Assembly: GCF_041248615.1 (NCBI RefSeq)
Contig: NZ_CP158426.1
Source of the DNA: Escherichia coli
Lineage (GTDB): Bacteria; Pseudomonadota; Gammaproteobacteria; Enterobacterales; Enterobacteriaceae
Length of the DNA: 64,000 nucleotides
Direction: 5' to 3' (one strand)
Below the pieces are notes generated by a model. The model was not told the DNA's origin and did not search any database. It saw only the letters and a list, made by a program, of their open reading frames with translations. Of the stretch, positions 1 to 11,827 are shown piece by piece (the first letter of the stretch is position 1; each line of letters begins with the position of its first letter). The position numbers and the translations under genes are program-made.

Positions 1-725
1 TTGTTTATCTTGACTGTATCGTCCTGAAAGTTCGGCAGGACAGTCGCATCATCAACAAATCGGTGTTCCTGGCACTGGGCATCAATATCGAAGGTCAGAA
101 AGAACTGCTGGGTATGTGGCTGGCCGAAAATGAAGGGGCGAAGTTCTGGCTCAATGTGCTGACTGAACTGAAAAACCGCGGTCTGAACGATATCCTCATC
201 GCCTGTGTGGATGGCCTGAAAGGCTTCCCGGATGCCATCAACACAGTATATCCGAAGGCCCGCATCCAGTTATGCATCGTGCATATGGTGCGCAACAGCC
301 TGCGCTTCGTGTCATGGAAGGACTACAAAGCCGTCACTCGCGACCTGAAAGCGATTTATCAGGCTCCCACGGAAGAGGCAGGTCAGCAGGCACTGGAAGC
401 GTTCGCTGCGGCCTGGGACAGTCGCTATCCTCAGATAAGCCGAAGCTGGCAGGCTAACTGGCCGAATCTTGCCACGTTCTTCGCTTATCCAACGGACATC
501 CGCAAAGTGATCTATACGACGAATGCCATCGAGTCGCTAAACAGCGTGATCCGCCATGCGATCAAAAAGCGTAAAGTGTTCCCGACAGACGACTCGGTGA
601 AAAAAGTGGTGTGGCTGGCAATCCAGTCTGCGTCCCAGAAATGGACGATGCCGTTGAAGGACTGGCGAATGGCAATGAGCCGCTTTATTATCGAGTTCGG
701 TGACCGCCTGGACGGTCACTTCTGA
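1..725 (+). CDS. IS256-family transposase, C-terminal part (5' end lies outside the window)
   Basis: Frame of ORF 63..725 stays open back to position 3; translation carries IS256/mutator-type transposase motifs (NEGAKFW, ACVDGL.GF, CIVHMVRNS). Recognised from memory, not searched. Confidence 0.85.
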   Translation, partial: VYLDCIVLKVRQDSRIINKSVFLALGINIEGQKELLGMWLAENEGAKFWLNVLTELKNRGLNDILIACVDGLKGFPDAINTVYPKARIQLCIVHMVRNSLRFVSWKDYKAVTRDLKAIYQAPTEEAGQQALEAFAAAWDSRYPQISRSWQANWPNLATFFAYPTDIRKVIYTTNAIESLNSVIRHAIKKRKVFPTDDSVKKVVWLAIQSASQKWTMPLKDWRMAMSRFIIEFGDRLDGHF

Positions 726-1044
726 GAAAAGGCATTTACACAGAATCCTAAACAGGCTCTACGACATGGCTATTCCGTATGAACCATACGGAGATTTAAC
801 CATGGCACATTCTTTACCATTCCTTCCGGCAACCGATACAGCACATCCTCCGATGTCCATCCCTGCCTGCTGACAGTTTTTTACGCCGGAGGGCCATTGT
901 GTGACAACCACAGTGCTGTAACAGCAACCAGCCTGCTTTACCCAAACTCCAGTCCAGATTTTAACTGAACCGCCATTCACACCCTGACCACACTGCCCGT
1001 ACCGGGACAGCTGTTGCCTGCGTGTCGTCTGGCTGCTGAGGAAT

Positions 1045-1434
1045 ATGACGATGTACGCAAAATCCTTTATTGCATTTGATGGCAACGGGCGTCTGACGGG
1101 TGCCCGTACCGCACAGACTGCACCTTACGATCGCTACACTTGCCACCTTTGCGGCAGTGCGCTCAGATACCACCCGCAATACGACACTGAGCGTCCCTGG
1201 TTTGAACACACTGACGACGGGCTGACGGAGCACGGTCAGCAGTGCCCTTATGTCAGACCGGAACGCAGGGAGATACAACTGATTAAGCGTCTGCAGCAAT
1301 TCGTACCGGATGCCTTACCCGTGGTGCGTAAAGCCAGCCGGCACTGCAGACAATGTCATCACGATTATTATGGGGAGCGGTACTGCACGCACAGCCATAC
1401 CGGGCACTTCAGTGAGGAGGGGGTGGCAGAATGA
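1045..1434 (+). CDS. hypothetical Cys-rich zinc-ribbon-like protein (129 aa)
   Basis: ORF with CxxC-x13-WFEH motif and a second Cys/His cluster (CRQCHHDYYGERYCTHSH); GAGG 3-4 nt before ATG 1045, alternative ATG at 1051; stop overlaps start of next ORF (ATGA). Confidence 0.5.
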   Translation: MTMYAKSFIAFDGNGRLTGARTAQTAPYDRYTCHLCGSALRYHPQYDTERPWFEHTDDGLTEHGQQCPYVRPERREIQLIKRLQQFVPDALPVVRKASRHCRQCHHDYYGERYCTHSHTGHFSEEGVAE

Positions 1435-1856
1435 ACGGTATAAAAACGGGGCTGGGGATCACGCCGGGTGAACACATTATCAGTGCTGATTCTGCGCTCA
1501 GCAGAAATATCCGGCAGTGTTTCTGCCTTTCCTGTCATGGCCGGTTGATTTTGCAGACAGATGCTCAGGGGGCGTGGTTTGAGCACGATTTACATGTCCT
1601 GAGCGAGCAACAGAAGGCAGCCTGCGTGGTGCTGAATCCGGAAAAGTCCCACCCTTACATTGAGGATATGGAGATGTTTTTATCGCCATTACCGGTCGTG
1701 CTGGAGTGGCATTGTGTGATGTGTGAGCAGTTTTTTCATGGGAAGAAATTCTGTGAGGCCTGTGGTACGGGGATTTATTGCAGAGCGGTATGTACGAAGT
1801 CTGTTTACAGCTACCAGCCAGACTTGTTTCAGGACTGCGGAGGTGCGAGTACTTAA
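1431..1856 (+). CDS. hypothetical Cys-rich zinc-ribbon-like protein (141 aa), paralog of upstream ORF
   Basis: CxxC-x12-WFEHDLH motif plus CxxC-x9-CxxC-x4-C-x3-C cluster; start codon overlaps upstream stop (ATGA at 1431-1434), suggesting translational coupling. Confidence 0.5.
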   Translation: MNGIKTGLGITPGEHIISADSALSRNIRQCFCLSCHGRLILQTDAQGAWFEHDLHVLSEQQKAACVVLNPEKSHPYIEDMEMFLSPLPVVLEWHCVMCEQFFHGKKFCEACGTGIYCRAVCTKSVYSYQPDLFQDCGGAST

Positions 1857-2057
1857 TCCGAAATGCCCGACCTGCTCAGGGCGTTCAGAAGTATCGGAAC
1901 CTGCATTTTATCTGGTGTTTCGCACCCACCCCGTTCGTGACACAAAGGCGCGACACCGGATATCCGCAGTCCTGCTTACCTGAATAAAACCCGGGGTATT
2001 GATTGTGTACTGTGGTGCGAAATCGCACCGTGATCGCGGATTCGCCGAATCCGCACT

Positions 2058-2300
2058 GTGGTGTCAACCAACCATACGCGAGAGTCCTCTCCGTATTTAT
2101 CAGTGCCTCAGGACGATTTCTGCATAGTTAATCCAGGGGGCTGCATTGTTTATTTCCCTGCTAATGGACGTGACATCCAGGATATTCATGATCCTGATTT
2201 CCCTGAGCAGTATCAGCGCTTATTGGAGCGTCTGGATTATCAGACGATGCCCGGTACTAAAGCATCAGGCCAGCGTAACTCTGGCTACAGCGGTTTTTGA
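2058..2300 (+). CDS. doubtful ORF (80 aa), possibly a gene remnant
   Basis: ORF begins with GTG, contains no ATG start, no clear ribosome-binding site; same frame as ORF 2328..2894 but separated by two in-frame stops. Confidence 0.25.
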   Translation: MVSTNHTRESSPYLSVPQDDFCIVNPGGCIVYFPANGRDIQDIHDPDFPEQYQRLLERLDYQTMPGTKASGQRNSGYSGF

Positions 2301-2327
2301 CCTGTTGTAACTGTAAGGTGATTTATT

Positions 2328-2894
2328 ATGTATACAGAATCAAATGTTAAGCTTTCCTGTAACGCCCTCTGGCAAAAGTGTGTCCTTGCAACTCTGTATC
2401 GGGCTGCAGCCACACATCCTGAAATTAAATTATTACAATTTAAATTAATACCAGGGCAGGGTATTAATAAGGCCATTCCCTCTCTGATGGCTGATTTTAC
2501 TGGTGAACTGCATAGACTCATTTCTGAATATTTGCAGTGTAAGCGACGTAAAGAGCAATCTGTTGAGCCCACCCCTTTATATTATCTCTGGAGTAGGGAA
2601 GCTGTGGCTAACGATACCACTCCTTATCTTATGGTGCTGCTACTTAATAACGATGTCTGGTGTAAGAGTCGTGAGGTGGTGGTTCTCAGAAATCTGATTG
2701 AGCAGGCGTGGGGAAAAGTATTGGGTGAAGATAACTCCATTACACATCTGGTTGTGTATCCTGAAGTGCTGTCGTTGGTATTTGATGCAGCTAACACATA
2801 CAACGCTGAGCCTGCTGTACTGGAACAGACGGCCCGGGCTTACATTGAATCACATGGTACCATTGAACGTCATCTTGGGTGTAGTGACTTTTAA
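2328..2894 (+). CDS. hypothetical protein (188 aa)
   Basis: ATG preceded by AAGG about 8 nt upstream; moderately AT-rich; followed by a stem-loop at 2911..2938. No family recognised. Confidence 0.45.
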   Translation: MYTESNVKLSCNALWQKCVLATLYRAAATHPEIKLLQFKLIPGQGINKAIPSLMADFTGELHRLISEYLQCKRRKEQSVEPTPLYYLWSREAVANDTTPYLMVLLLNNDVWCKSREVVVLRNLIEQAWGKVLGEDNSITHLVVYPEVLSLVFDAANTYNAEPAVLEQTARAYIESHGTIERHLGCSDF

Positions 2895-2910
2895 CGTCAG
2901 GTGATGCATA

Positions 2911-2938
2911 AGGGCCTTTCGCTGAGAGGCCCTGTTTA
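2911..2938 (+). terminator. putative intrinsic terminator after ORF 2328..2894
   Basis: 7-bp stem AGGGCCT/AGGCCCT with 9-nt loop followed by GTTT; T-run is weak. Confidence 0.3.
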
Positions 2939-3156
2939 CACAATTAAATAAATCGAGCCCGACCAACAATTTTGATGTTAACAGCAGGATTATTGAGGGG
3001 CAATCAATGTGTTCTTCGGTAGCGATTACGGTAGTGAACGGACCTGCTGTCTGAATGGCATCGATCCGCAAGCGTATCGGCGCCATATTCTGAGCGTACT
3101 ACTGAAATGGCTAATGGCAGTAAAGAGAGACTTTACGTATATTTGCATAAAGCAGG

Positions 3157-3186
3157 ATTTTACGACTAGTCAACATTCTTTATAAT
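3157..3186 (+). promoter_or_regulatory. putative sigma70 promoter of orphan gene
   Basis: TAGTCA (3157-3162), 18-bp spacer, perfect TATAAT (3181-3186), about 55 bp upstream of ATG 3240. Confidence 0.3.
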
Positions 3187-3239
3187 TCTTCAGGTTCAGA
3201 GTATCTGACATATAGGGTTATGTATTGGGGAGACATTTA

Positions 3240-3941
3240 ATGTTTGGCCATCTGTTACGATACTTTAGTTTCTGTAAAAAAGATTTATTAGTATTTCATC
3301 CTGAATCTGATTACTCAGATAATTTACATAAAGCCTTCTCTTTTACAAAAAGGCTAGGATTTAATGAAGAATGGAATGGGGTCACAAAAAACAAAGAATA
3401 TGATTATCAGGATGTATTCAGTCATGTCTGTCTGCAGTCTGGTGTGACAGACTTTTCCGCTTCAGCAGGACAATGCTTAAAGTGGAGTCATTATTTTCAG
3501 CCATATTTTGAGAATATCCTTGAATGTCGGGTATGGGTTACCGTTGGACAACTCTGGAAACAGGAACGATTTATTTACAATCCGTCAGTTGCGGATTTTC
3601 AGCGCTGGTCTGAAAAAGGGATTCAGCCTGAAGATTTTAGACATCACTCGGGGTTTAACTTTCATGCGTGGTTGACGACGGAAAATGGTGTGATTGTGGA
3701 TGTTTCCTTTATGAGTACGTTATCGCGGCGATTACCTGAACACCTGAGTGAAGTCAGTGGAAGTGTGATTATTGGCACGCCAGAGACGGTTCTTCCTGAG
3801 TATAAATATGTTCCCATGATTGTCGGTCAGAGGATTGTTGAGAAAATAGAAAAACGCTCTTTCATTGGTTTTCTGGCGCACGACGATATTGATTTATATA
3901 CAGTACCTGCAATCTTGGTTCCGGTATGGAAAGAATGTTAA
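3240..3941 (+). CDS. hypothetical protein (233 aa), AT-rich orphan cargo gene
   Basis: ORF 3225..3941 starts at TTG; in-frame ATG at 3240 sits 6 nt after GGGGAGA. Sampled stretches are clearly AT-rich versus neighbouring core genes. No family recognised. Confidence 0.55.
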   Translation: MFGHLLRYFSFCKKDLLVFHPESDYSDNLHKAFSFTKRLGFNEEWNGVTKNKEYDYQDVFSHVCLQSGVTDFSASAGQCLKWSHYFQPYFENILECRVWVTVGQLWKQERFIYNPSVADFQRWSEKGIQPEDFRHHSGFNFHAWLTTENGVIVDVSFMSTLSRRLPEHLSEVSGSVIIGTPETVLPEYKYVPMIVGQRIVEKIEKRSFIGFLAHDDIDLYTVPAILVPVWKEC

Positions 3942-4260
3942 AGCACGGAATAACACTATGCACTTACCGCTTTCCGGAACTCAGCTTGTTACCTGAGCGG
4001 TCAACAGAGCAGTCTTTCAGTGTCTGCACTTGGTTGCCACTAAACCGGAGTCATTTATCAGAAGTATATGTTCATGGAAGGATATTGTCAGCGCCAGTGA
4101 TATAAGACGGTAATGAGGATAGCCACCCCGCATGGGTTTCCTCAACACTGGTCACTGTGACAAGCGCACCATGATCGTCTTTGTATCGCTGATTGACTTT
4201 CGATAATAGAACATCTTCTGACATAAATTTTAGTACGGTAACAATTAACTAAATTTTCAT

Positions 4261-4527
4261 GTGGTAGCACTGAATCAGGAGACTGCGTTTCCTGATGTGT
4301 GCTTCTGCAGCCGTTACCGGATACAGACTTCGATACCAGTTACTTCGACATCCGCCATGTGTCCTGGGACCCGCTATAACGAAGTTGGAGGTAATCAGTA
4401 CAGCGTTCCCGAAATGCTGTGTGGTCAGCCAGTCTCGATACGAATATCGCTGAACGATGAGTTGCGGATCTACAGTAATGAGAAACTGGTGGCCTCACAT
4501 CGCCTCTGCTCAGTGTCGTCTGGCTAG
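4261..4527 (+). pseudogene. transposase C-terminal fragment (IS21 IstA-like?)
   Basis: Short ORF with C-terminus resembling transposase tails (ELRIYSNEKLVASHRL); weak, from memory only. Confidence 0.3.
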
Positions 4528-4671
4528 CAGATAGTACCGGAACCTCACGCCCCGCTCTGGCAGCAGATCAGTCAGGTGGAACATCGACCACTGAGTGCCT
4601 ATGAGGAGCTGTTGTGATGCATGTGTCAACGACGGATGAAAGTGGCTCTTCCGCAACCTGGGTGGAGATTT

Positions 4672-6098
4672 TCATGCCAGTGGACTCATTACCCTCTGCC
4701 TGAGTAGTTCAAATCCTGCTCGACCATACATCTGGCGTTTCAGCATCTTCAGGCGATTTACATGACCTTCGACAACACCATTACTCCAGTGACTACTGAT
4801 TGCCTCACATATAGCTGCAGCATCAGCTTCCATCCCCGCCGCCACGCGCCGAAATTCTGCTGAACCGCTTTCGTGGACTCGAGTGAACCAACTGCTTAGC
4901 TGTGATTTATTTTGGGTTTTCAGAATACGGTAGAACTCGAGTGCCAGTTGCTGCGCTATTTTCAGCTCAGGTTCTTTTTCACACATCAGACTAATAAATC
5001 GGGAAGCATAATTTTCTTCATCCCTGGTTATTCTCCAGGGCATCAACCAGCGGCTTACCCGGGACACTGAAGGAAGTCTGACGGCAGTAGTAACCGGTGG
5101 GTTCCAGCCTTTACGCCATTTGGCAACCGCATCCCTGACGATGGTTTCACTGCCTGTAAATCCCCGGGCCACCATTTCCCGCCATATCCGGCTGGCGTTA
5201 TAATTACCACTTTCTCGTTGCTCTTTTAACCACTCCCTCCATGGGTCCAGAAGCCCTCGCTTTGGCGGTCGGGTTGACATTTCAGGGAATGTTCCTGAAC
5301 GCACCCAGCGACTGACTGTCACACGCGACAGGCCTGTAATACGGGATATTTCCCTGAAACTACATCCCTTGTTATGCAGGGCCATAACCTCTGTCCAACG
5401 CTGATGCCGTTTTTTGCGGGTTTGTTGTTTTAGGCGTTCCGGACGACGGAGCGATGCTGCAGGCACAGATGGTTCTGGATCAGGTGATTTCTTTGGTGAC
5501 AACTCACTGGCAACAAGACGTATCAGAGGTATATGTCTATACATCATTCGTTCAGGCGCATCGCCAATATTTTTTAGCAGATGCCATCGATCGGCCACCT
5601 GTCTGGCCTGAGGTGCACCTTCACGTGCTGCTGTCGCATAGACTCCACTGCGATCACGCGAGACAATCTGTATTTCCGGATATTTTCTGAACCAGGTCGC
5701 CAGCGTACGCTGATCACGGCCGGGAAGCAGGACGAGGGGACGGTGAGTATCAAGATTGACGATTAACGTACCGTAACGGTGGCCCCGATGCCACGCCCAC
5801 TCATCAATACCGACATGAGGCGAGCCTGACTGTTTCGTCTCCGGGGTATTGATAACCCTGCGAAGGAGAGTATCAGCACTGCAACGGAGACCCACTGCCG
5901 TTGCTGCCCGTTTCCCGGCCTCACCTCCGGCGATTAATCCCAGTTGACGTTGTAAATTTTGTAACGCCTGTGAAGACTGTTGGTGTGAACCGGCGAAGGG
6001 AGCAAGCGACTCGGCAAAAATTTTACGTGAACAAGCCGGGTTACGGCAGTACCAGTGGCGGACAGAAAATACAAGCCATAGCGTATGTCCTGAGCAGG
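4672..6098 (-). pseudogene. ISL3-family transposase, C-terminal ~475 aa, interrupted by IS2
   Basis: C-terminus carries ISL3 signature (SNGVVEGHVNRLKMLKRQMYGRAGFELLRQRV); N-proximal zinc-finger-like RHWYCRNPACSRKIF; ORF runs 12 codons into IS2 end at 6099. Confidence 0.8.
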
Positions 6099-6109
6099 TG
6101 GATTTGCCC

Positions 6110-7015
6110 CTATATTTCCAGACACCTGTTATCACTTAACCCATTACTGGCCTGCTGCCGCAGATATTCCCGTGGCGAGCGATAACCCAGTGCACTATGC
6201 GGATGCCATTCGTTATAATGCTCGAACGCCTCTGCAAGGTTCTTTGCTGCCGTTAACCCGTCTGGTTTAGGCATGATACTGATGTAGTCACGCTTTATCG
6301 TTTTCACGAAGCTCTCTGCTATGCCGTTACTCTCCGGACTCCGCACCGCCGTGTTCTTCGGTTCAAGCCCCAATATCCGGGCAAACTGCCGTGTTTCATT
6401 AGCCCGGTAGCATGAACCATTATCCGTCAGCCACTCTACTGGAGACGCCGGAAGCTCGTTGCCGAAGCGGCGTTCCACCGCTCCCAGCATGACGTCCTGT
6501 ACTGTTTCACTGTCGAAGCCGCCCGTAGTGACTGCCCAGTGCAGTGCCTCACGGTCACAGCAGTCCAGCGCGAACGTGACTCGCAGTTTTTCTCCGTTAT
6601 CACAGCGGAACTCGAACCCGTCAGAGCACCATCGTTGATTGCTTTCTTTCACGGCCACTTTGCCAGTATGTGCCCGTTTCGATGGCGGTACAGCGGTTTT
6701 TCGCTCAAGCAACAGCGCATTCTGGCGCATGATCCGGTAAACACGTTTGGCATTGATCGCAGGCGTACCATCAAGTTCGGCCTGTCTGCGAAGCAGCGCC
6801 CATACCCGACGATAACCATACGTGGGCAGCTCTCCGATAACATGGTGTATACGGAGAAGCACATCCGTATCATCTGAGTGACGGCTGCGGCGACCATCTT
6901 TCCAGTCATCGGTTCGTCTGAGAATTACGTGCAACTGCGCACGCGACACCCGGAGACAACGGCTGACTAAGCTTACTCCCCATCCCCGGGCAATAAGGGC
7001 GCGTGCGCTATCCAC
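6110..7015 (-). CDS. insD: IS2 transposase InsD (orfB)
   Basis: 301-aa [19 protein letters not shown]... matches remembered IS2 InsD. Confidence 0.9.
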
Positions 7016-7338
7016 TTTTTTGCACGCCCGTATTCAACGGCTTCTTTAAGGAGTTCATTTTCCATCGTTTTTTTGCCGAGCAGGCGCTGGAGTTCTTTAA
7101 TCTGCTTCATGGCAGCAGCAAGTTCAGAGGCAGGAACGACCTGCTCTCCTGCGGCCACAGCAGTAAGACTTCCCTCCTGGTATTGCTTGCGCCAGAGAAA
7201 TAACTGGCTGGCTGCCACACCGTGTTGCCGGGCAACAAGGGAGACCTTCATTCCCGGTTCAAAACTCTGCTGAACAATAGCGATCTTTTCCTGTGTAGTA
7301 CGCCGTCTGCGTTTCTCCGGTCCTAAGACATCAATCAT
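6973..7338 (-). CDS. insC: IS2 InsC (orfA)
   Basis: ORF 6973..7383 contains [22 protein letters not shown]...; start placed at that Met (121 aa); overlaps insD as expected for frameshift fusion. Confidence 0.85.
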
Positions 7339-7429
7339 CTGCTCTCCAATGACTAGTCTAAAAACTAGTATTAAGACTATCACTTATTTAAGTGATATTG
7401 GTTGTCTGGAGATTCATGGGGCCAGTCTA

Positions 7430-7569
7430 CCTGTGTAGTACGCCGTCTGCGTTTCTCCGGTCCTAAGACATCAATCATCTGCTCTCCAATGACTAGTCTA
7501 AAAACTAGTATTAAGACTATCACTTATTTAAGTGATATTGGTTGTCTGGAGATTCATGGGGCCAGTCTA
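7430..7569. repeat. perfect tandem duplicate of the terminal 140 bp of IS2 (IRL end plus insC 5' end)
   Basis: 7430..7569 is base-for-base identical to 7290..7429. Confidence 0.85.
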
Positions 7570-7782
7570 ATGTGTATCCGGGATGGATGTTTACCAGAAC
7601 CTTCTCTGTTCCAGTGTGTGGAGTTTTACAGAAGAGGCGACTGTATGCAACTCTTGCCCCGTAACTGTCTTTATTCGTTTCTCCACACTCTCCGGACATT
7701 GTAAATTCCAGATGTGTGGCAGTGTGTTTTTCGTAAATCGTACACAATGCATTTTTACACGGAGTTCAGCCAGTCGTATCAC
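7570..7782 (-). pseudogene. probable N-terminal remnant of the ISL3-family transposase, beyond the IS2 insertion
   Basis: Short frameshifted minus-strand ORFs (7520..7747, 7591..7782) adjacent to the IS2 junction; assignment by position and weak similarity only. Confidence 0.35.
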
Positions 7783-8036
7783 TGAGAGTTTTTTTTCTGA
7801 TTTGTACCACTCATGCAGCAGTGATAAGGAGATATTTTCTCTGTCGGGCCAGCAGGGGCGGTGCCACCTGTTTAGTTTTCTTATGTTTGGTAAAAGAGAG
7901 GCTAAAATATATACAACAGGCGCATGTAATGATTCATATTGTTAATCATTAACCAGTAAGAATTAATGTAGTGGATCGGTAATTCAGGACACCTCGAAAT
8001 CCTGTTAATGTTAAAACAGTGAAAATGGGGTGATGC

Positions 8037-8354
8037 ATGAGCAAAACTCGTCGGACTAAACGCACCTTTTCCCCGGAGTTCAGGCTCGAAGCTATCGAGC
8101 AAGTAGTTAAATACCAGCGCGATGTCAGAGAAGTCGCGCTGGCACTTGAGCTCAATCCTGACCATTTGCGTAAATGGATACGGTTGTATAAGCTGGAACT
8201 TCAGGGTATTGAGCCCGCTGGTAATGCCATACCCCTGAACAGCGAGAAATTCAGCAGCTTAAAAGCGCAGATAAAGCGCCTTGAGATGGAAAAAGAAATA
8301 CTAAAGCAGGCTGCCGTGCTGATGAGCGAAATCCCCGGCAAGCTGTCGCGCTAA
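8037..8354 (+). CDS. IS3-family transposase OrfA (105 aa)
   Basis: MSKTRRTKRTFSPEFRLEAIEQV... with helix-turn-helix and leucine-zipper-like tail typical of IS3 OrfA. Confidence 0.75.
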   Translation: MSKTRRTKRTFSPEFRLEAIEQVVKYQRDVREVALALELNPDHLRKWIRLYKLELQGIEPAGNAIPLNSEKFSSLKAQIKRLEMEKEILKQAAVLMSEIPGKLSR

Positions 8355-8455
8355 TCACACTGCTGAAAGCAAAGCGGCCAGTGCGGATTATTTGTCATTT
8401 ATTCGGTGTTCACCGTAGCGTTTATTACGCGCAGGTGAAGCGTCCTGTTAATGTA
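8355..8455 (+). pseudogene. IS3-family orfB N-terminal remnant (truncated)
   Basis: Reads ...LFGVHRSVYYAQVKRP... typical of IS3 OrfB N-terminus, then ends at the junction near 8456. Confidence 0.45.
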
Positions 8456-8519
8456 TCAGCGCCAATGATATAAGACAGTAATTAGGATTCGGACGATTTC
8501 CTGGACTGCTTTATTATGC

Positions 8520-9229
8520 CAGCCCGCATTGTTGGCGGTACATTTCAGGGATGACTGCACCCAGCGAAAATTTTATACGCCGCTCGTTATACCATCTGAT
8601 GTAAGCATCCACATGCCGCATGAATTTTTCAGGCGTGATACCCAATCATTTACGCCCATAATATATTTCAGTTTTCAGTCTGCCGAAAAAGCCTTCGCAT
8701 GCAGCATTATCAGGCGAGCATCCTTTACGGGACATTGAGCGAATAAGGCCTGCTGTATTCACTCTTTCCAGCCAGGCCAGCGATAATGCCCACCTCTGTC
8801 ACTGTGTATCACCGGTCGTTCGCCAGCATTTAACGTTTCGACAGCGTTATCCAGCATAGTGTTGACCAGTTCAGCATCGGGGCGTGTACTGAGAGACCAG
8901 CTCACAACTTTTCTGTCGAAGCAGTCCACCACCGGTGATAGCCAGACTTTTCCTGCAGGAAGCTGGAACTCCGTGATATCTGTCAGCCATTTCTGATTAG
9001 GTTGCTCCGCCTTAAAATCTCTGGCGATAAGGTTATCCGGAGAAGGTCCGATTTCTCCGCAATATGAGCTGTAGCGGCGATGACGGTTACGGCTGACGAC
9101 AAGCTGTTCCTCCACCATAAGTCTGCGTACAACCTTTTCTGATAGCCGATCCCCCTCATGCCTGAGCATCGCATGCAGGCGACGATAGCCATAACACTGG
9201 TAATTACTGTTAAATATATCTGTCAGCAT
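8520..9229 (-). pseudogene. IS3-family transposase orfB (DDE), frameshifted
   Basis: ORF 8759..9229 has DDE-region motifs (WLTDITEF, HSDRGG); downstream out-of-frame segment encodes SMSRKGCSPDNAACEGFFGRLK. Confidence 0.75.
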
Positions 9230-9337
9230 CGTACGTATCGTGGCGTATTTATCACTGGCTTTCAGTGCAGCCCGGTGATAAAAATAACTGCTACGGGCAA
9301 GGCCCAGAACATGCAGTAATTCTGTCAGGGGATATGT

Positions 9338-10041
9338 TTATCTCAGGGCATCAGTAATCTTTGTTTTTTCTCTGTTGTTCAGGTGACTGATGCTGATGCC
9401 CGGGTCTTTTTTTATTATTTCCTCCGCTTTTTTCAGAATATCCAGTTCCATCTGCCGGCGGCGTATTTCCTGATTCAGTCGGGCGACTTCCTCCCGCAAC
9501 GCATCGCGTTCTGCCTCCAGGGAAGGGGCGTTATGTTTACGCATAGTCTGGTAAGCACTGTTGCCGATAATTTCATCTTTCCATTTATACAATACCGCGC
9601 GACTGACACCAATACGCCTGGCGATTTCACTGGCTGATCCTTGTCGTGTACAGAGTACCATGACAGCCTGACGTTTGACTTCTGGTTCAAAGGACGCAAC
9701 CGGATTGGTCTTACTGGTAAATACACGTCGTCTGTCGGGGGAACGTTCATTAACCCAGCGAGCGAGCATATCGGTACAGGGATAACCCAGAGTCCTGCTG
9801 GTAAACGCCAGGCAGCAGCCGTGGTTAAGATAATGTTCAACGGCAACCTGTTTTTGCTCATCGGAGTAACGGTGCTTATGACGAATGGATTCTTTTGATC
9901 CGCCACCTGCTTCCCATGAACGGATCCAACGCCGCAGATTTCTTTTCGAAGGGTAGCCCAGTTCGCGTACGACGGGGCCAGCTTCTTACCATATTTGAAA
10001 TAAAGCTCAATGGTGCGAATTTTTTGTTCTTCAGTAAACAT
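9338..10041 (-). pseudogene. IS3-family transposase orfA, frameshifted
   Basis: MFTEEQKIRTIELYFKYGKK at 10041 then a frame shift; ORF 9338..9769 carries the helix-turn-helix and coiled-coil tail. Confidence 0.6.
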
Positions 10042-10291
10042 GTTTCATCTCCTGAGAGTCCAGGAAATCGTCCGCATCCCCTAACGGTCAAAAATCGTGG
10101 CGTTGATACAGGGGAAATCCGTAGTTTTTGATGCCAGCCATAACGTGTTTGACTATAAAGTATTACGAAAGGACTTTAATGAGCCCCTGGAATAATTCAT
10201 TAAAGTAATTTACTTCGCTATCCTTTTCCCAGTTACTCACAAAGAAAAATATTCATAAAATAATTCCCGGGCTGGCAGCCCGGGATGATTA

Positions 10292-11554
10292 CTATTTTAA
10301 TGGATTGTTAATCTTTGCATATTCAAACGGGCTGATACATTGTTCTCTGTTCGCACCCAGAAAATCTGCCCACCACTGTAGCATCAGTCGACGTTCTTCC
10401 AGATGTTCTGCTTTATGGATATATGCAGCACGTACACCATTACGCTCCTGATGGCTCATCTGACGTTCCACAGCATCGCGGGACCACAAACCTGATTCAA
10501 TCAATGCACTGCACGCCATCGCCCGGAATCCATGACCACAGACTTCCTGGGTTGTGTCATATCCCATCACCCTCAGGGCTTTATTTACAGTATTTTCACT
10601 GATCGGTTTACGCGGGTCATGTGCTCCCGTAAAGATCAGACCATTTTCACCAGCCCATGTCTGTAGTTCTGTCAGTATGGCTACAGCCTGTTTGCTGAGT
10701 GGCACAAGATGTGGTGTTCGCATCTTGGAGCCCCGGTGTGAGTATTTTACGCCTGGCAGAGGTTCGCGTTCGGCTGGAATAGTCCACATGGCATTGTCAA
10801 TATCAATTTCAGACCAGCGGGAATATCTGAGTTCACTGGAACGAATAAAAACCAGTAAATTCAGCATAACTGCCAGTCGGGTGACAGGCTGACCTTTATA
10901 ACCGTCAATACGCGACAGAAGTTCAGGCAGGCGTGAAAGATCCAGAGCAGGGCGATGCTGGCGTTTTACCGTGGTCAATGCACCAGCCATATCCAGAGCC
11001 GGGTTATATCTGATGATGCCAGACTGTACGGCATAACGCATTACAGCAGATATTCTTTGCTGCAGACGACTGGCGATTTCATAAATTTGTTTTGCTTCTG
11101 CAGCACGAACAGGGATAAGCAGGTCCGGGGTATTGAGTGTTGTGATATCCCGGTTGCCGATAAAGGGGAAAACGTGTGTCTCGAGGCTTTTGATTACTTT
11201 ATCGCTGTGTGATTGTGCCCATTGTTTATTACTGGCATGCCAGCGTCGTGCAATATGTTCAAAAGAGAGTTGTAAATCAGGGACTACTTTTTTAGCTCTT
11301 TTTTGTTCGCAAGGGTCAATCCCCTCTGAAATCAGTTTTCGGGCCTCATCCCGTTTTGTACGAGCTTCGGAGAGAGAAACTTCTGGATATACACCAAGTG
11401 CCAGAGTCTTCTCCTTACCCAGAATACGATAACGGAGACGCCAGTAACGGGAACCATTAGGATGAACCAGCAGGAACATGCCAGCCCCGTCAGTGAGTTT
11501 ATAAGCCTTGTCAGTGTGCTTTGCAGCCCGGATTTTTGCGTCAGTCAGTGCCAT
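10292..11554 (-). CDS. P4-type tyrosine integrase (420 aa)
   Basis: MALTDAKIRAAKH... N-terminus and length typical of P4/CP4-57-like integrases; about 200 bp from the tRNA-Phe 3' end, same orientation. Confidence 0.9.
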   Translation of the reverse strand: MALTDAKIRAAKHTDKAYKLTDGAGMFLLVHPNGSRYWRLRYRILGKEKTLALGVYPEVSLSEARTKRDEARKLISEGIDPCEQKRAKKVVPDLQLSFEHIARRWHASNKQWAQSHSDKVIKSLETHVFPFIGNRDITTLNTPDLLIPVRAAEAKQIYEIASRLQQRISAVMRYAVQSGIIRYNPALDMAGALTTVKRQHRPALDLSRLPELLSRIDGYKGQPVTRLAVMLNLLVFIRSSELRYSRWSEIDIDNAMWTIPAEREPLPGVKYSHRGSKMRTPHLVPLSKQAVAILTELQTWAGENGLIFTGAHDPRKPISENTVNKALRVMGYDTTQEVCGHGFRAMACSALIESGLWSRDAVERQMSHQERNGVRAAYIHKAEHLEERRLMLQWWADFLGANREQCISPFEYAKINNPLK

Positions 11555-11751: not shown

Positions 11752-11827
11752 TGGTGCCCGGACTCGGAATCGAACCAAGGACACGGGGATTTTCAATCCC
11801 CTGCTCTACCGACTGAGCTATCCGGGC
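11752..11827 (-). tRNA. pheV: tRNA-Phe (anticodon GAA)
   Basis: Reverse complement reads GCCCGGATAGCTCAGTCGGTAGAGCAGGGGATTGAAAATCCCCGTGTCCTTGGTTCGATTCCGAGTCCGGGCACCA (76 nt); pheV assigned by yqgA-speC context. Confidence 0.95.

Follow-up and report, generated by a model that had tools for sequence, protein, structure and literature searches.

The window analyzed here is a stretch of 64,000 nucleotides (nt) of Escherichia coli (contig NZ_CP158426.1), and its region 7967 to 10195, just inside the integrase end of the tRNA-Phe (pheV) genomic island, is a pile of inert mobile-element remains. It is ordinary debris of three defective elements: a fragment of an insertion sequence (IS) of the IS3 family on the plus strand, a dead IS3-family element on the minus strand, and, on either side of the latter, the two ends of a miniature IS21-family element, here called the shell. 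Nothing in this region is any longer able to transpose alone or to encode a functional protein. The first 20 kb of the window is 100% identical to E. coli NRZ14408 (NZ_LT599825.1, 960001-980000), and of 5426 complete E. coli genomes, 34 contain the same 2.2 kb with identity at or close to 100%. An earlier note on this DNA had described two IS3-family elements in opposite orientation, set back to back. Profile matches and open reading frames (ORFs) bear out both elements and their orientations. The features of the region and its surroundings, with the annotation in RefSeq by the Prokaryotic Genome Annotation Pipeline (PGAP), are as follows.

7967-8454, plus strand: 5' fragment of an ISKpn37-like IS3-family element, about 487 of 1257 bp (blastn)
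8037-8354, plus strand: orfA of the ISKpn37-like element, 105 amino acids (aa); Pfam HTH_Tnp_1 (2.5e-14) and the N-terminal part of NCBIfam transpos_IS3
8037-8455: RefSeq/PGAP annotation, "transposase; frameshifted; incomplete"
8452-8481: left-end half of a miniature IS21-family element, an ISEc62-type first terminal repeat with tip TGTATCA
8482-10081, minus strand: full-length, dead IS3-family element of the IS1353/ISKpn38/ISBmu11 single-ORF group, 1600 bp
8482-8507: its transposase-distal inverted repeat, 26 bp, with a mutated tip, TTAGGATTCGG instead of TGGGGATGCGG
8514-10041, minus strand: its transposase pseudogene; RefSeq/PGAP annotation, "IS3 family transposase; frameshifted; internal stop"
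within 8641-8660: stop in this pseudogene, TGG>TGA (this and the next three lesions relative to locus L002)
near 8776: 4-nt deletion in the same pseudogene
within 9330-9349: second stop, CAA>TAA
near 9977: 1-nt deletion
10056-10081: transposase-proximal inverted repeat, 26 bp, terminal base lost, ...CATCCCC instead of ...CATCCCCA
10082-10110: right-end half of the miniature IS21-family element, IS21-type, tip ...TGATACA
10106-10195: RefSeq/PGAP annotation, phosphoethanolamine transferase fragment, "missing N-terminus"
10109-10195, plus strand: last ~87 bp of the phosphoethanolamine transferase gene; homology to islands with the intact gene starts at 10109
10292-11554: P4-type integrase, adjoining the IS debris, inside the edge of the pheV island
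11752-11827: tRNA-Phe, in the local order yqgA, tRNA-Phe, P4-type integrase

The basic content of both IS3-family pieces is thus already in public annotation as transposase pseudogenes. In what follows, L-numbers are labels for comparison loci, L002 being that of E. coli 100117.

The plus-strand fragment begins at base 7967 with the left terminus TGTAGTGGATCGG..., and blastn against near-complete copies (L004, L009, and L010) gave 93.7 to 93.9% identity over 7966/7969-8454. Copies L009 and L010, from other E. coli genomes, are 1257 bp long with ends TGTAGTGG...CCACTACA. No homology to the near-complete copies beyond 8454 was detected elsewhere within window positions 7800-10400 by blastn. The earlier note had placed an orfA followed by a truncated orfB here, and both are present: orfA carries its HTH_Tnp_1 domain, and the short orfB fragment 3' of it matches the orfB of relatives. 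OrfA is still open because a 1-nt deletion (~8229/8230) and a 1-nt insertion (in an A run, ~8260) compensate; about 10 codons between the −1 and +1 changes are out of frame. With regard to the IS3 family, the fragment has the orfA domain and the left end TGTAGTGG, and the DDE part is missing from it. Its relatives have rve domains, and their two frames are annotated as joined by a programmed frameshift; the orfB that they encode shares 94% identity with a protein that NCBI names "IS3-like element ISKpn37 family transposase" and ~47 to 50% with those of IS911 and IS222.

The minus-strand element is complete from end to end. The earlier note had seen an inverted repeat at 8487-8513 versus 10056-10084. 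The repeat is real, with limits a few bases away from those given: the two copies align as 8482-8507 and 10056-10081. Within them, 8485-8507 and 10057-10079 pair over 23 nt with one mismatch (96% complementary), whereas none of 200 shuffles of 7300-10400 yielded a 23-nt inverted repeat with at most one mismatch. That these repeats are terminal is borne out by independent copies (L003 and L045), whose termini they match. Indeed, copies in unrelated contexts define the ends TGGGGATGCGGACGATTTCCTGGACT ... AGTCCAGGAAATCGTCCGCATCCCCA and stop exactly at TGGGG...CCCCA, be they bare (L003) or within other shells (L043 to L046). A known IS3-family terminus also corresponds to them, the repeat of IS1353 being almost the same (TGGGGGTGCGGACGATTTCTTGGAC). 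Relatives have the TG...CA tips of IS3-type elements (TGGGGATGCGG...CCGCATCCCCA), and L044 retains the intact proximal tip (GACCGTTA followed directly by TGGGGATG); the window copy reads TT... and ...CCCC with the last A lost, and its failure to show TG...CA is decay. The element is flanked by a 3-bp target duplication, TAA at 8479-8481 and 10082-10084, as expected for an IS3-family insertion.

The window copy is 94 to 95% identical in nucleotide sequence to copies in other contexts and 95.0% identical to the intact relative in L002 (WP_446851591.1, 510 aa). Frameshifts had been noted earlier in both an orfA and an orfB of this element; the two frameshifting deletions are there, in what is a single 510-aa frame in the intact relatives. 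The intact protein matches NCBIfam transpos_IS3 (3e-127, 424.9 bits, cut-off 160) and the Pfam domains rve, rve_2, HTH_21, and HTH_Tnp_1. Intact relatives have one frame of 510 to 512 aa, also as called in metagenomes, and homologues of this length number in the thousands across Proteobacteria. The two overlapping frames with programmed −1 frameshifting that are typical of IS3 are not found in this group; an A7G run is present, but in frame. The single frame is common to IS1353, ISKpn38, and ISBmu11, and it marks a subgroup without excluding membership of the IS3 family. The intact relative is 61% identical in amino acid sequence to ISKpn38, 53.5% to ISBmu11, 51.5% to IS1353, and ~43% to IS150 over the catalytic part. 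NCBIfam and Pfam resolve it only to "IS3 family," NCBI annotation holds no specific name for the E. coli element, and plasmid annotations give no ISfinder name for it. The PGAP label "programmed frameshift" on the copy in L045 was rejected; it rescues a 2-nt insertion, and there is no slippage site.

The two IS3-family elements do not touch. Flanking the minus-strand one are two segments of about 30 bp (8452-8481 and 10082-10110) that are part of neither IS3-family element and consist of IS21-family termini. On the left, 8456-8483 is identical at 28 of 28 positions to ISEc62 positions 3-30, at its left end (L035). On the right, an IS21-end pattern matches at 10085-10106, and the segment differs, its tip aside, by one mismatch from the right end of IS21 (reverse complement TGTATCAACGCCACGATTTTTGACCGTTA versus TGTCAACGCCACGATGTTTGACCGTTA). 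When one genome per species was scanned, the shell sequence turned up at many contig ends of Escherichia sp. MOD1-EC7003, in which a 2125-bp contig with ~27-fold excess coverage carries the shell ends and encodes IstA and IstB. This contig is 100% identical to an element annotated as ISEc62 and 85.6% identical to IS21; ISEc62 is the 2125-bp istA/istB parent type of the shell. In MOD1-EC7003 itself, ISEc62 is apparently present in ~27 copies (contig coverage 2968 versus ~110) and breaks the assembly at ~25 contig ends (L035 and L016 to L039), an unusual expansion for the IS21 family.

Joined together, the outer flanks match contiguous sequences of ~52 to 55 bp in 311 E. coli records (over at least 80% of the joined flanks, at up to 14 places per genome). 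In the empty 52-bp sequences, positions 1-28 of the IS21 left end run through a shared TAA into the final 27 nt of the right end. IS21 insertion makes 4-bp target duplications, and perfect ones were found at two of the four empty shells examined, CAGG (L005) and TTTG (L006); all four lie in different surroundings. The 52-bp shell thus has the marks of a miniature inverted-repeat transposable element (MITE): it is small and noncoding, with terminal inverted repeats, many copies, and target duplications. Taken as a MITE without a known parent, the 55-bp "empty" sequence would have ends TGTGTCA...TGACACA and a duplication of 3 bp; this reading was rejected in favor of the IS21/ISEc62 parents, which give ends TGTCA...TGACA and a 4-bp duplication. 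We found no report of such a mini-IS21 in the literature.

As a member of the IS21 family, the shell in the window has TGT...ACA termini homologous to those of other members. Between them lies only the inner IS3 element, with no istA or istB, so that the shell is at most a non-autonomous derivative. Each terminal inverted repeat of an IS21-family element contains a pair of direct repeats (L1/L2 and R1/R2; PMC10122671), and the shell keeps only the outermost ~28 nt of each end. A short target duplication is absent around it in the window, where the flanks read ...TTAA and GGGG.... A second, half copy of the mini-IS21 stands at window positions 4086-4114 (TGTCAGCGCCAGTGATATAAGACGGTAA), cut off precisely at the central TAA and lacking an adjacent IS3-group element. 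At 4301-4623, ~190 bp from this half copy, lies a remnant of the IstA C terminus, 79% identical to that of ISEc62 and annotated as a "Mu transposase domain" pseudogene.

These segments bear directly on the earlier picture of the two IS3 elements in contact, in which the minus-strand IS, with the repeats at ~8487 and ~10084 as its limits, inserted into or deleted the plus-strand one at ~8456. That picture had the orientation, the family assignment, the inverted repeat, and the truncation point about right, since homology to the plus-strand element does stop at 8454. The piece abutting this point is, however, the IS21-derived end: 8455-8481 and 10082-10110 intervene between the repeats and the junctions and match IS21/ISEc62 termini. 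A simple insertion of one element into the other is further contradicted by the absence of a target duplication and by the flank beyond 10110, which is the 3' end of the transferase gene; the remainder of the plus-strand IS is not found there. We consider direct contact improbable. Annotation pipelines miss the 28-bp solo ends of IS21-family elements, and junctions such as this are consequently misread as IS3-to-IS3 contacts.

The shell and the inner IS together span 1659 bp (8452-10110). In L002, a filled shell with ends TGTCA...TGACA interrupts a DUF5983 gene and is flanked by the 4-bp duplication CACG. Once TGTCA...TGACA and one CACG are removed, the site is identical at 302 of 302 nt to intact genes in many genomes. 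Shell plus passenger therefore behaves elsewhere as one transposable unit, presumably moved by an IS21-type IstA/IstB in trans. At 1473-1520 of L002, a 24-nt sequence (CGTGTCAACGCCAAGATTATTGGC) occurs twice in tandem, duplicating the ISEc62-type end of this filled shell.

The outer segments might alternatively be integral to the minus-strand element, which would then be a 1659-bp IS with bipartite ends (an outer 13-bp TGTATCA(A/G)CGCCA and the inner 26-bp repeat) and its own enzyme. The outer tips 8452-8464 and 10098-10110 are indeed inverted repeats (92%), ACGATTT..GAC is common to the outer and inner repeats, and L002 contains all of the 1.66 kb again, flanked by a duplication. Against this, the outer segments, retained beside the IS in L002, are absent around the copy in L003, which ends cleanly at TG...CA; L045 and L046 hold the same IS in the shell in the opposite orientation; and the shell is empty in 311 records. 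Moreover, the outer segments are identical to the ends of istA/istB elements, and a 4-bp duplication fits IS21, as opposed to the 3 bp around the inner IS. Integral ends are accordingly very improbable, and the 13-bp outer repeat was dropped as a true IS3 terminus in view of the bare copies, the opposite-orientation copies, and the ISEc62 match.

The shell joins its neighbors at two junctions of a different kind. Its left tip meets the orfB of the ISKpn37-like element at 8451-8454, where the TGT at 8452-8454 is common to both, so that the break in the ISKpn37-like fragment lies between 8451 and 8455. At the other end, the CA at 10109-10110 is common to the IS21 tip and the phosphoethanolamine transferase remnant. 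Other strains have an intact transferase gene of 1674 bp beside this integrase. No target duplication surrounds the composite (8452-10110), the flanking bases being TTAA versus GGGG, and neither interrupted partner, the ISKpn37-like element or the transferase gene, resumes across it. It follows that at least one deletion or rearrangement made the outer junctions.

Taken together, the observations most probably describe a three-layer nest, in which an IS3-family element sits in a mini-IS21 shell, the two form a mobile unit, and deletions made the outer junctions; we hold this with good confidence. In the proposed history, an IS1353/ISKpn38-group element would have inserted 28 bp inside an IS21-family terminus and produced the 3-bp TAA duplication. 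The IS21-family host would by now consist of its two outermost terminal repeats only, the ~52-bp shell. Shell and passenger may then have moved as a unit, with IS21-type IstA/IstB the putative mobilizer in trans. Deletion from the ends of the unit would have cost the ISKpn37-like element ~770 bp and the transferase gene ~1.59 kb; we infer deletions here rather than recombination. The inner IS would finally have decayed through two frameshifts, two stops, and the mutation of both tips. The order of events and which end moved are not readable from the window sequence alone, and the sequence of steps given is our proposal.

Several points weigh against this nested arrangement. Both shell tips in the window, TGTATCA (8452-8458) and TGATACA (10104-10110), carry a symmetric 2-nt excess, unlike every reference end examined, which reads TGTCA/TGACA; none of these reference ends offered a source element with the window tips. 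The shell is also a hybrid of an ISEc62-type left half and an IS21-type right half. The element names rest on the NCBI product names of relatives, not on curated ISfinder entries. In vitro, integration by the transposase of IS5376, an IS21-family enzyme, requires both direct repeats in the terminal inverted repeat (PMC10122671), and since the shell keeps one repeat per end, its mobilization in trans is not assured. The target duplications could also date from full-length insertions that were later reduced in place. Finally, the triplets flanking the inner IS in L002 are TAA and AAA, each native to ISEc62 ends, and they fit two insertions followed by recombination as well as insertion into an existing mini element.

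This last point leads to another origin for the same anatomy. Two separate insertions of the IS, each 28 bp in from one end of a full-length IS21-family element, may have been followed by recombination of the two copies that removed istA/istB, and the empty 52-bp shells may have arisen later by precise loss of the IS between the TAA repeats. Such a history would explain why the internal junction of the shell is the preferred insertion point of the IS at both ends, it accounts for the native L002 triplets, and it has a counterpart in Alkalilimnicola ehrlichii, where a related IS copy stands at each end of a single istA/istB element. The window triplets are, on the other hand, identical (TAA/TAA), which is what a single insertion would leave. 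There are many empty shells, and both of their halves are of pure IS21 type, in contrast to the filled shells, which are ISEc62-type or hybrid; precise excision, moreover, is rare. We regard both the double insertion and the later emptying as possible but unlikely, and retain the single insertion into one IS21-family terminus.

The placement of the inner IS relative to the shell tip recurs among its relatives. A TGT is located 28 to 30 nt from the G-run of the IS in 19 of 22 distinct contexts of the single-ORF IS3 subgroup, compared with a chance expectation, by our own estimate, of ~9% per context (three distances, two sides, 1/64 each). The 22 contexts, not all independent, were sampled from relatives in Klebsiella (ISKpn38, at host ends of several variants), Burkholderia (ISBmu11, plus a copy from B. 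diffusa that is flanked on either side), Pseudomonas, Cupriavidus (where three of four copies show the TGT), Salmonella, and Alkalilimnicola. The motif is missing at this distance in L003, L057, and L066, and in L051 the ends of the IS are hidden by Ns. Hosts either belong to the IS21 family or encode a 466-aa transposase of the ISNCY_2 type. Several cases show direct repeats of one motif on both flanks, for example AATGGCCATTTATTCTGACCC and ACTGGCCATCAGAACTGACCC in Alkalilimnicola, which indicates insertion between the first and second terminal repeats. In E. coli the IS is found in the shell in one orientation in the window, L002, and L044 and in the other in L045 and L046; these are therefore separate insertion events at the same point.

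We therefore suggest, tentatively and with somewhat less than even confidence, that the subgroup of IS1353, ISKpn38, ISBmu11, and the E. coli element may insert preferentially 28 to 30 bp inside the TGT termini of IS21-family and ISNCY_2-type hosts, between their first and second transposase-binding repeats. In E. coli, this would have given an IS within a 52-bp IS21 shell that IS21-type enzymes can move. Given a constant distance and host ends of widely different sequence, the IS may be responding to the architecture of the host's terminal nucleoprotein complex and not to a DNA motif. We found no description of this target-position preference in the literature, and the pattern deserves a proper survey.

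Three of the comparison sites have an organization of their own. In A. ehrlichii (CP000453.1, 1742104-1748420; L065/L066), two identical copies of the related IS3-group element lie in inverted orientation at the ends of one istA/istB element, one 29 nt inside the left tip and the other directly abutting the TGT terminus of the right end. At the ISKpn38 loci (L048 and L072 to L080), the host termini differ in sequence, a conserved TTATGCGCAC stands 5 to 8 nt outside the TGT in all of them, and the transposase-distal end of the IS always faces the host tip. In B. diffusa (L064), the related IS lies between TGT termini of ~28 to 29 nt in inverted orientation, a layout like that of the filled miniature shell of E. 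coli, built here from ends of the ISNCY type.

Debris continues upstream of the region, over window positions 1-6096 and beyond. IS1414 (1-725) is cut by the window edge, and an ISEc38 lacking its N terminus (4672-6096) adjoins a complete, 1331-bp IS2 (6099-7429) with an intact frameshifted transposase. The orfA-proximal end of this IS2 has undergone a perfect 140-bp tandem duplication (7290-7429 = 7430-7569), so that its left terminus is present twice, as identical tandem copies; the flanks of 6099-7569 showed no 5-bp target duplication.

For the source genome all this has little consequence, the debris being inert and already flagged as pseudogenes. The region nevertheless records how the integrase-proximal end of the pheV island lost its phosphoethanolamine transferase gene. 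If the proposed targeting by the subgroup is true, it would predict where such elements occur, provide a natural probe of IS21-type end organization in vivo, and explain the long-known arrangement IS1326::IS1353 in class 1 integrons.

Each layer of the composite has known counterparts. The fragment resembles ISKpn37 (IS3/IS911-like group): the orfB of its relatives shares 94% identity with proteins of the ISKpn37 family, and these relatives are 1257 bp long and have two frames, with a programmed frameshift annotated. It differs in that the window keeps only the first ~487 bp; the E. coli copies have ~94% DNA identity to it, and all those examined are pseudogenes. The shell halves correspond to the terminal ~28 nt of IS21/ISEc62, with TGT...ACA-type ends and, around other copies, 4-bp duplications, and the shell is comparable to MITE-type derivatives of ISs, but istA/istB are lacking, and there is one terminal repeat per end versus two in the family (PMC10122671).

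ISKpn38 and ISBmu11 are the closest named relatives of the minus-strand element, with the same length and the same single frame, and the copies examined also stand 28 to 29 nt from a TGT terminus. Identity is nonetheless too low to name the window element after either, and the ISKpn38 hosts examined are ISNCY_2-type elements, not IS21. The closest likeness in arrangement is IS1326::IS1353 of integron In2 (Tn21, plasmid R100), a configuration described in the literature (PMC11470574). There too, an IS3-family element with a single frame of ~510 aa lies inside an IS21-family element. The IS1353 protein (514 aa) is 51.5% identical to the intact E. coli relative, its terminal repeat is nearly identical (TGGGGGTGCGGACGATTTCTTGGAC), and in R100 it lies 28 nt from the tip of IS1326, TGTTGAGTTGCATCTAAAATTGACCCAC being followed by TGGGGG. 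The R100 host, however, keeps istA/istB, whereas the host in the window retains only its two outermost ~28-bp ends, and the passenger in the window is a different, unnamed species, and dead.

Other ISs are known to target the ends of transposons, such as IS4321/IS5075 in the repeats of the Tn21 family and IS911 next to repeat-like sequences. They share with the present case recurrent insertion at a fixed position in the terminal repeat of another element. IS4321/IS5075 belong to the IS1111 family, and the target of IS911 resembles its own repeat; here, in contrast, the host ends are diverse and it is the distance to the tip that is constant.

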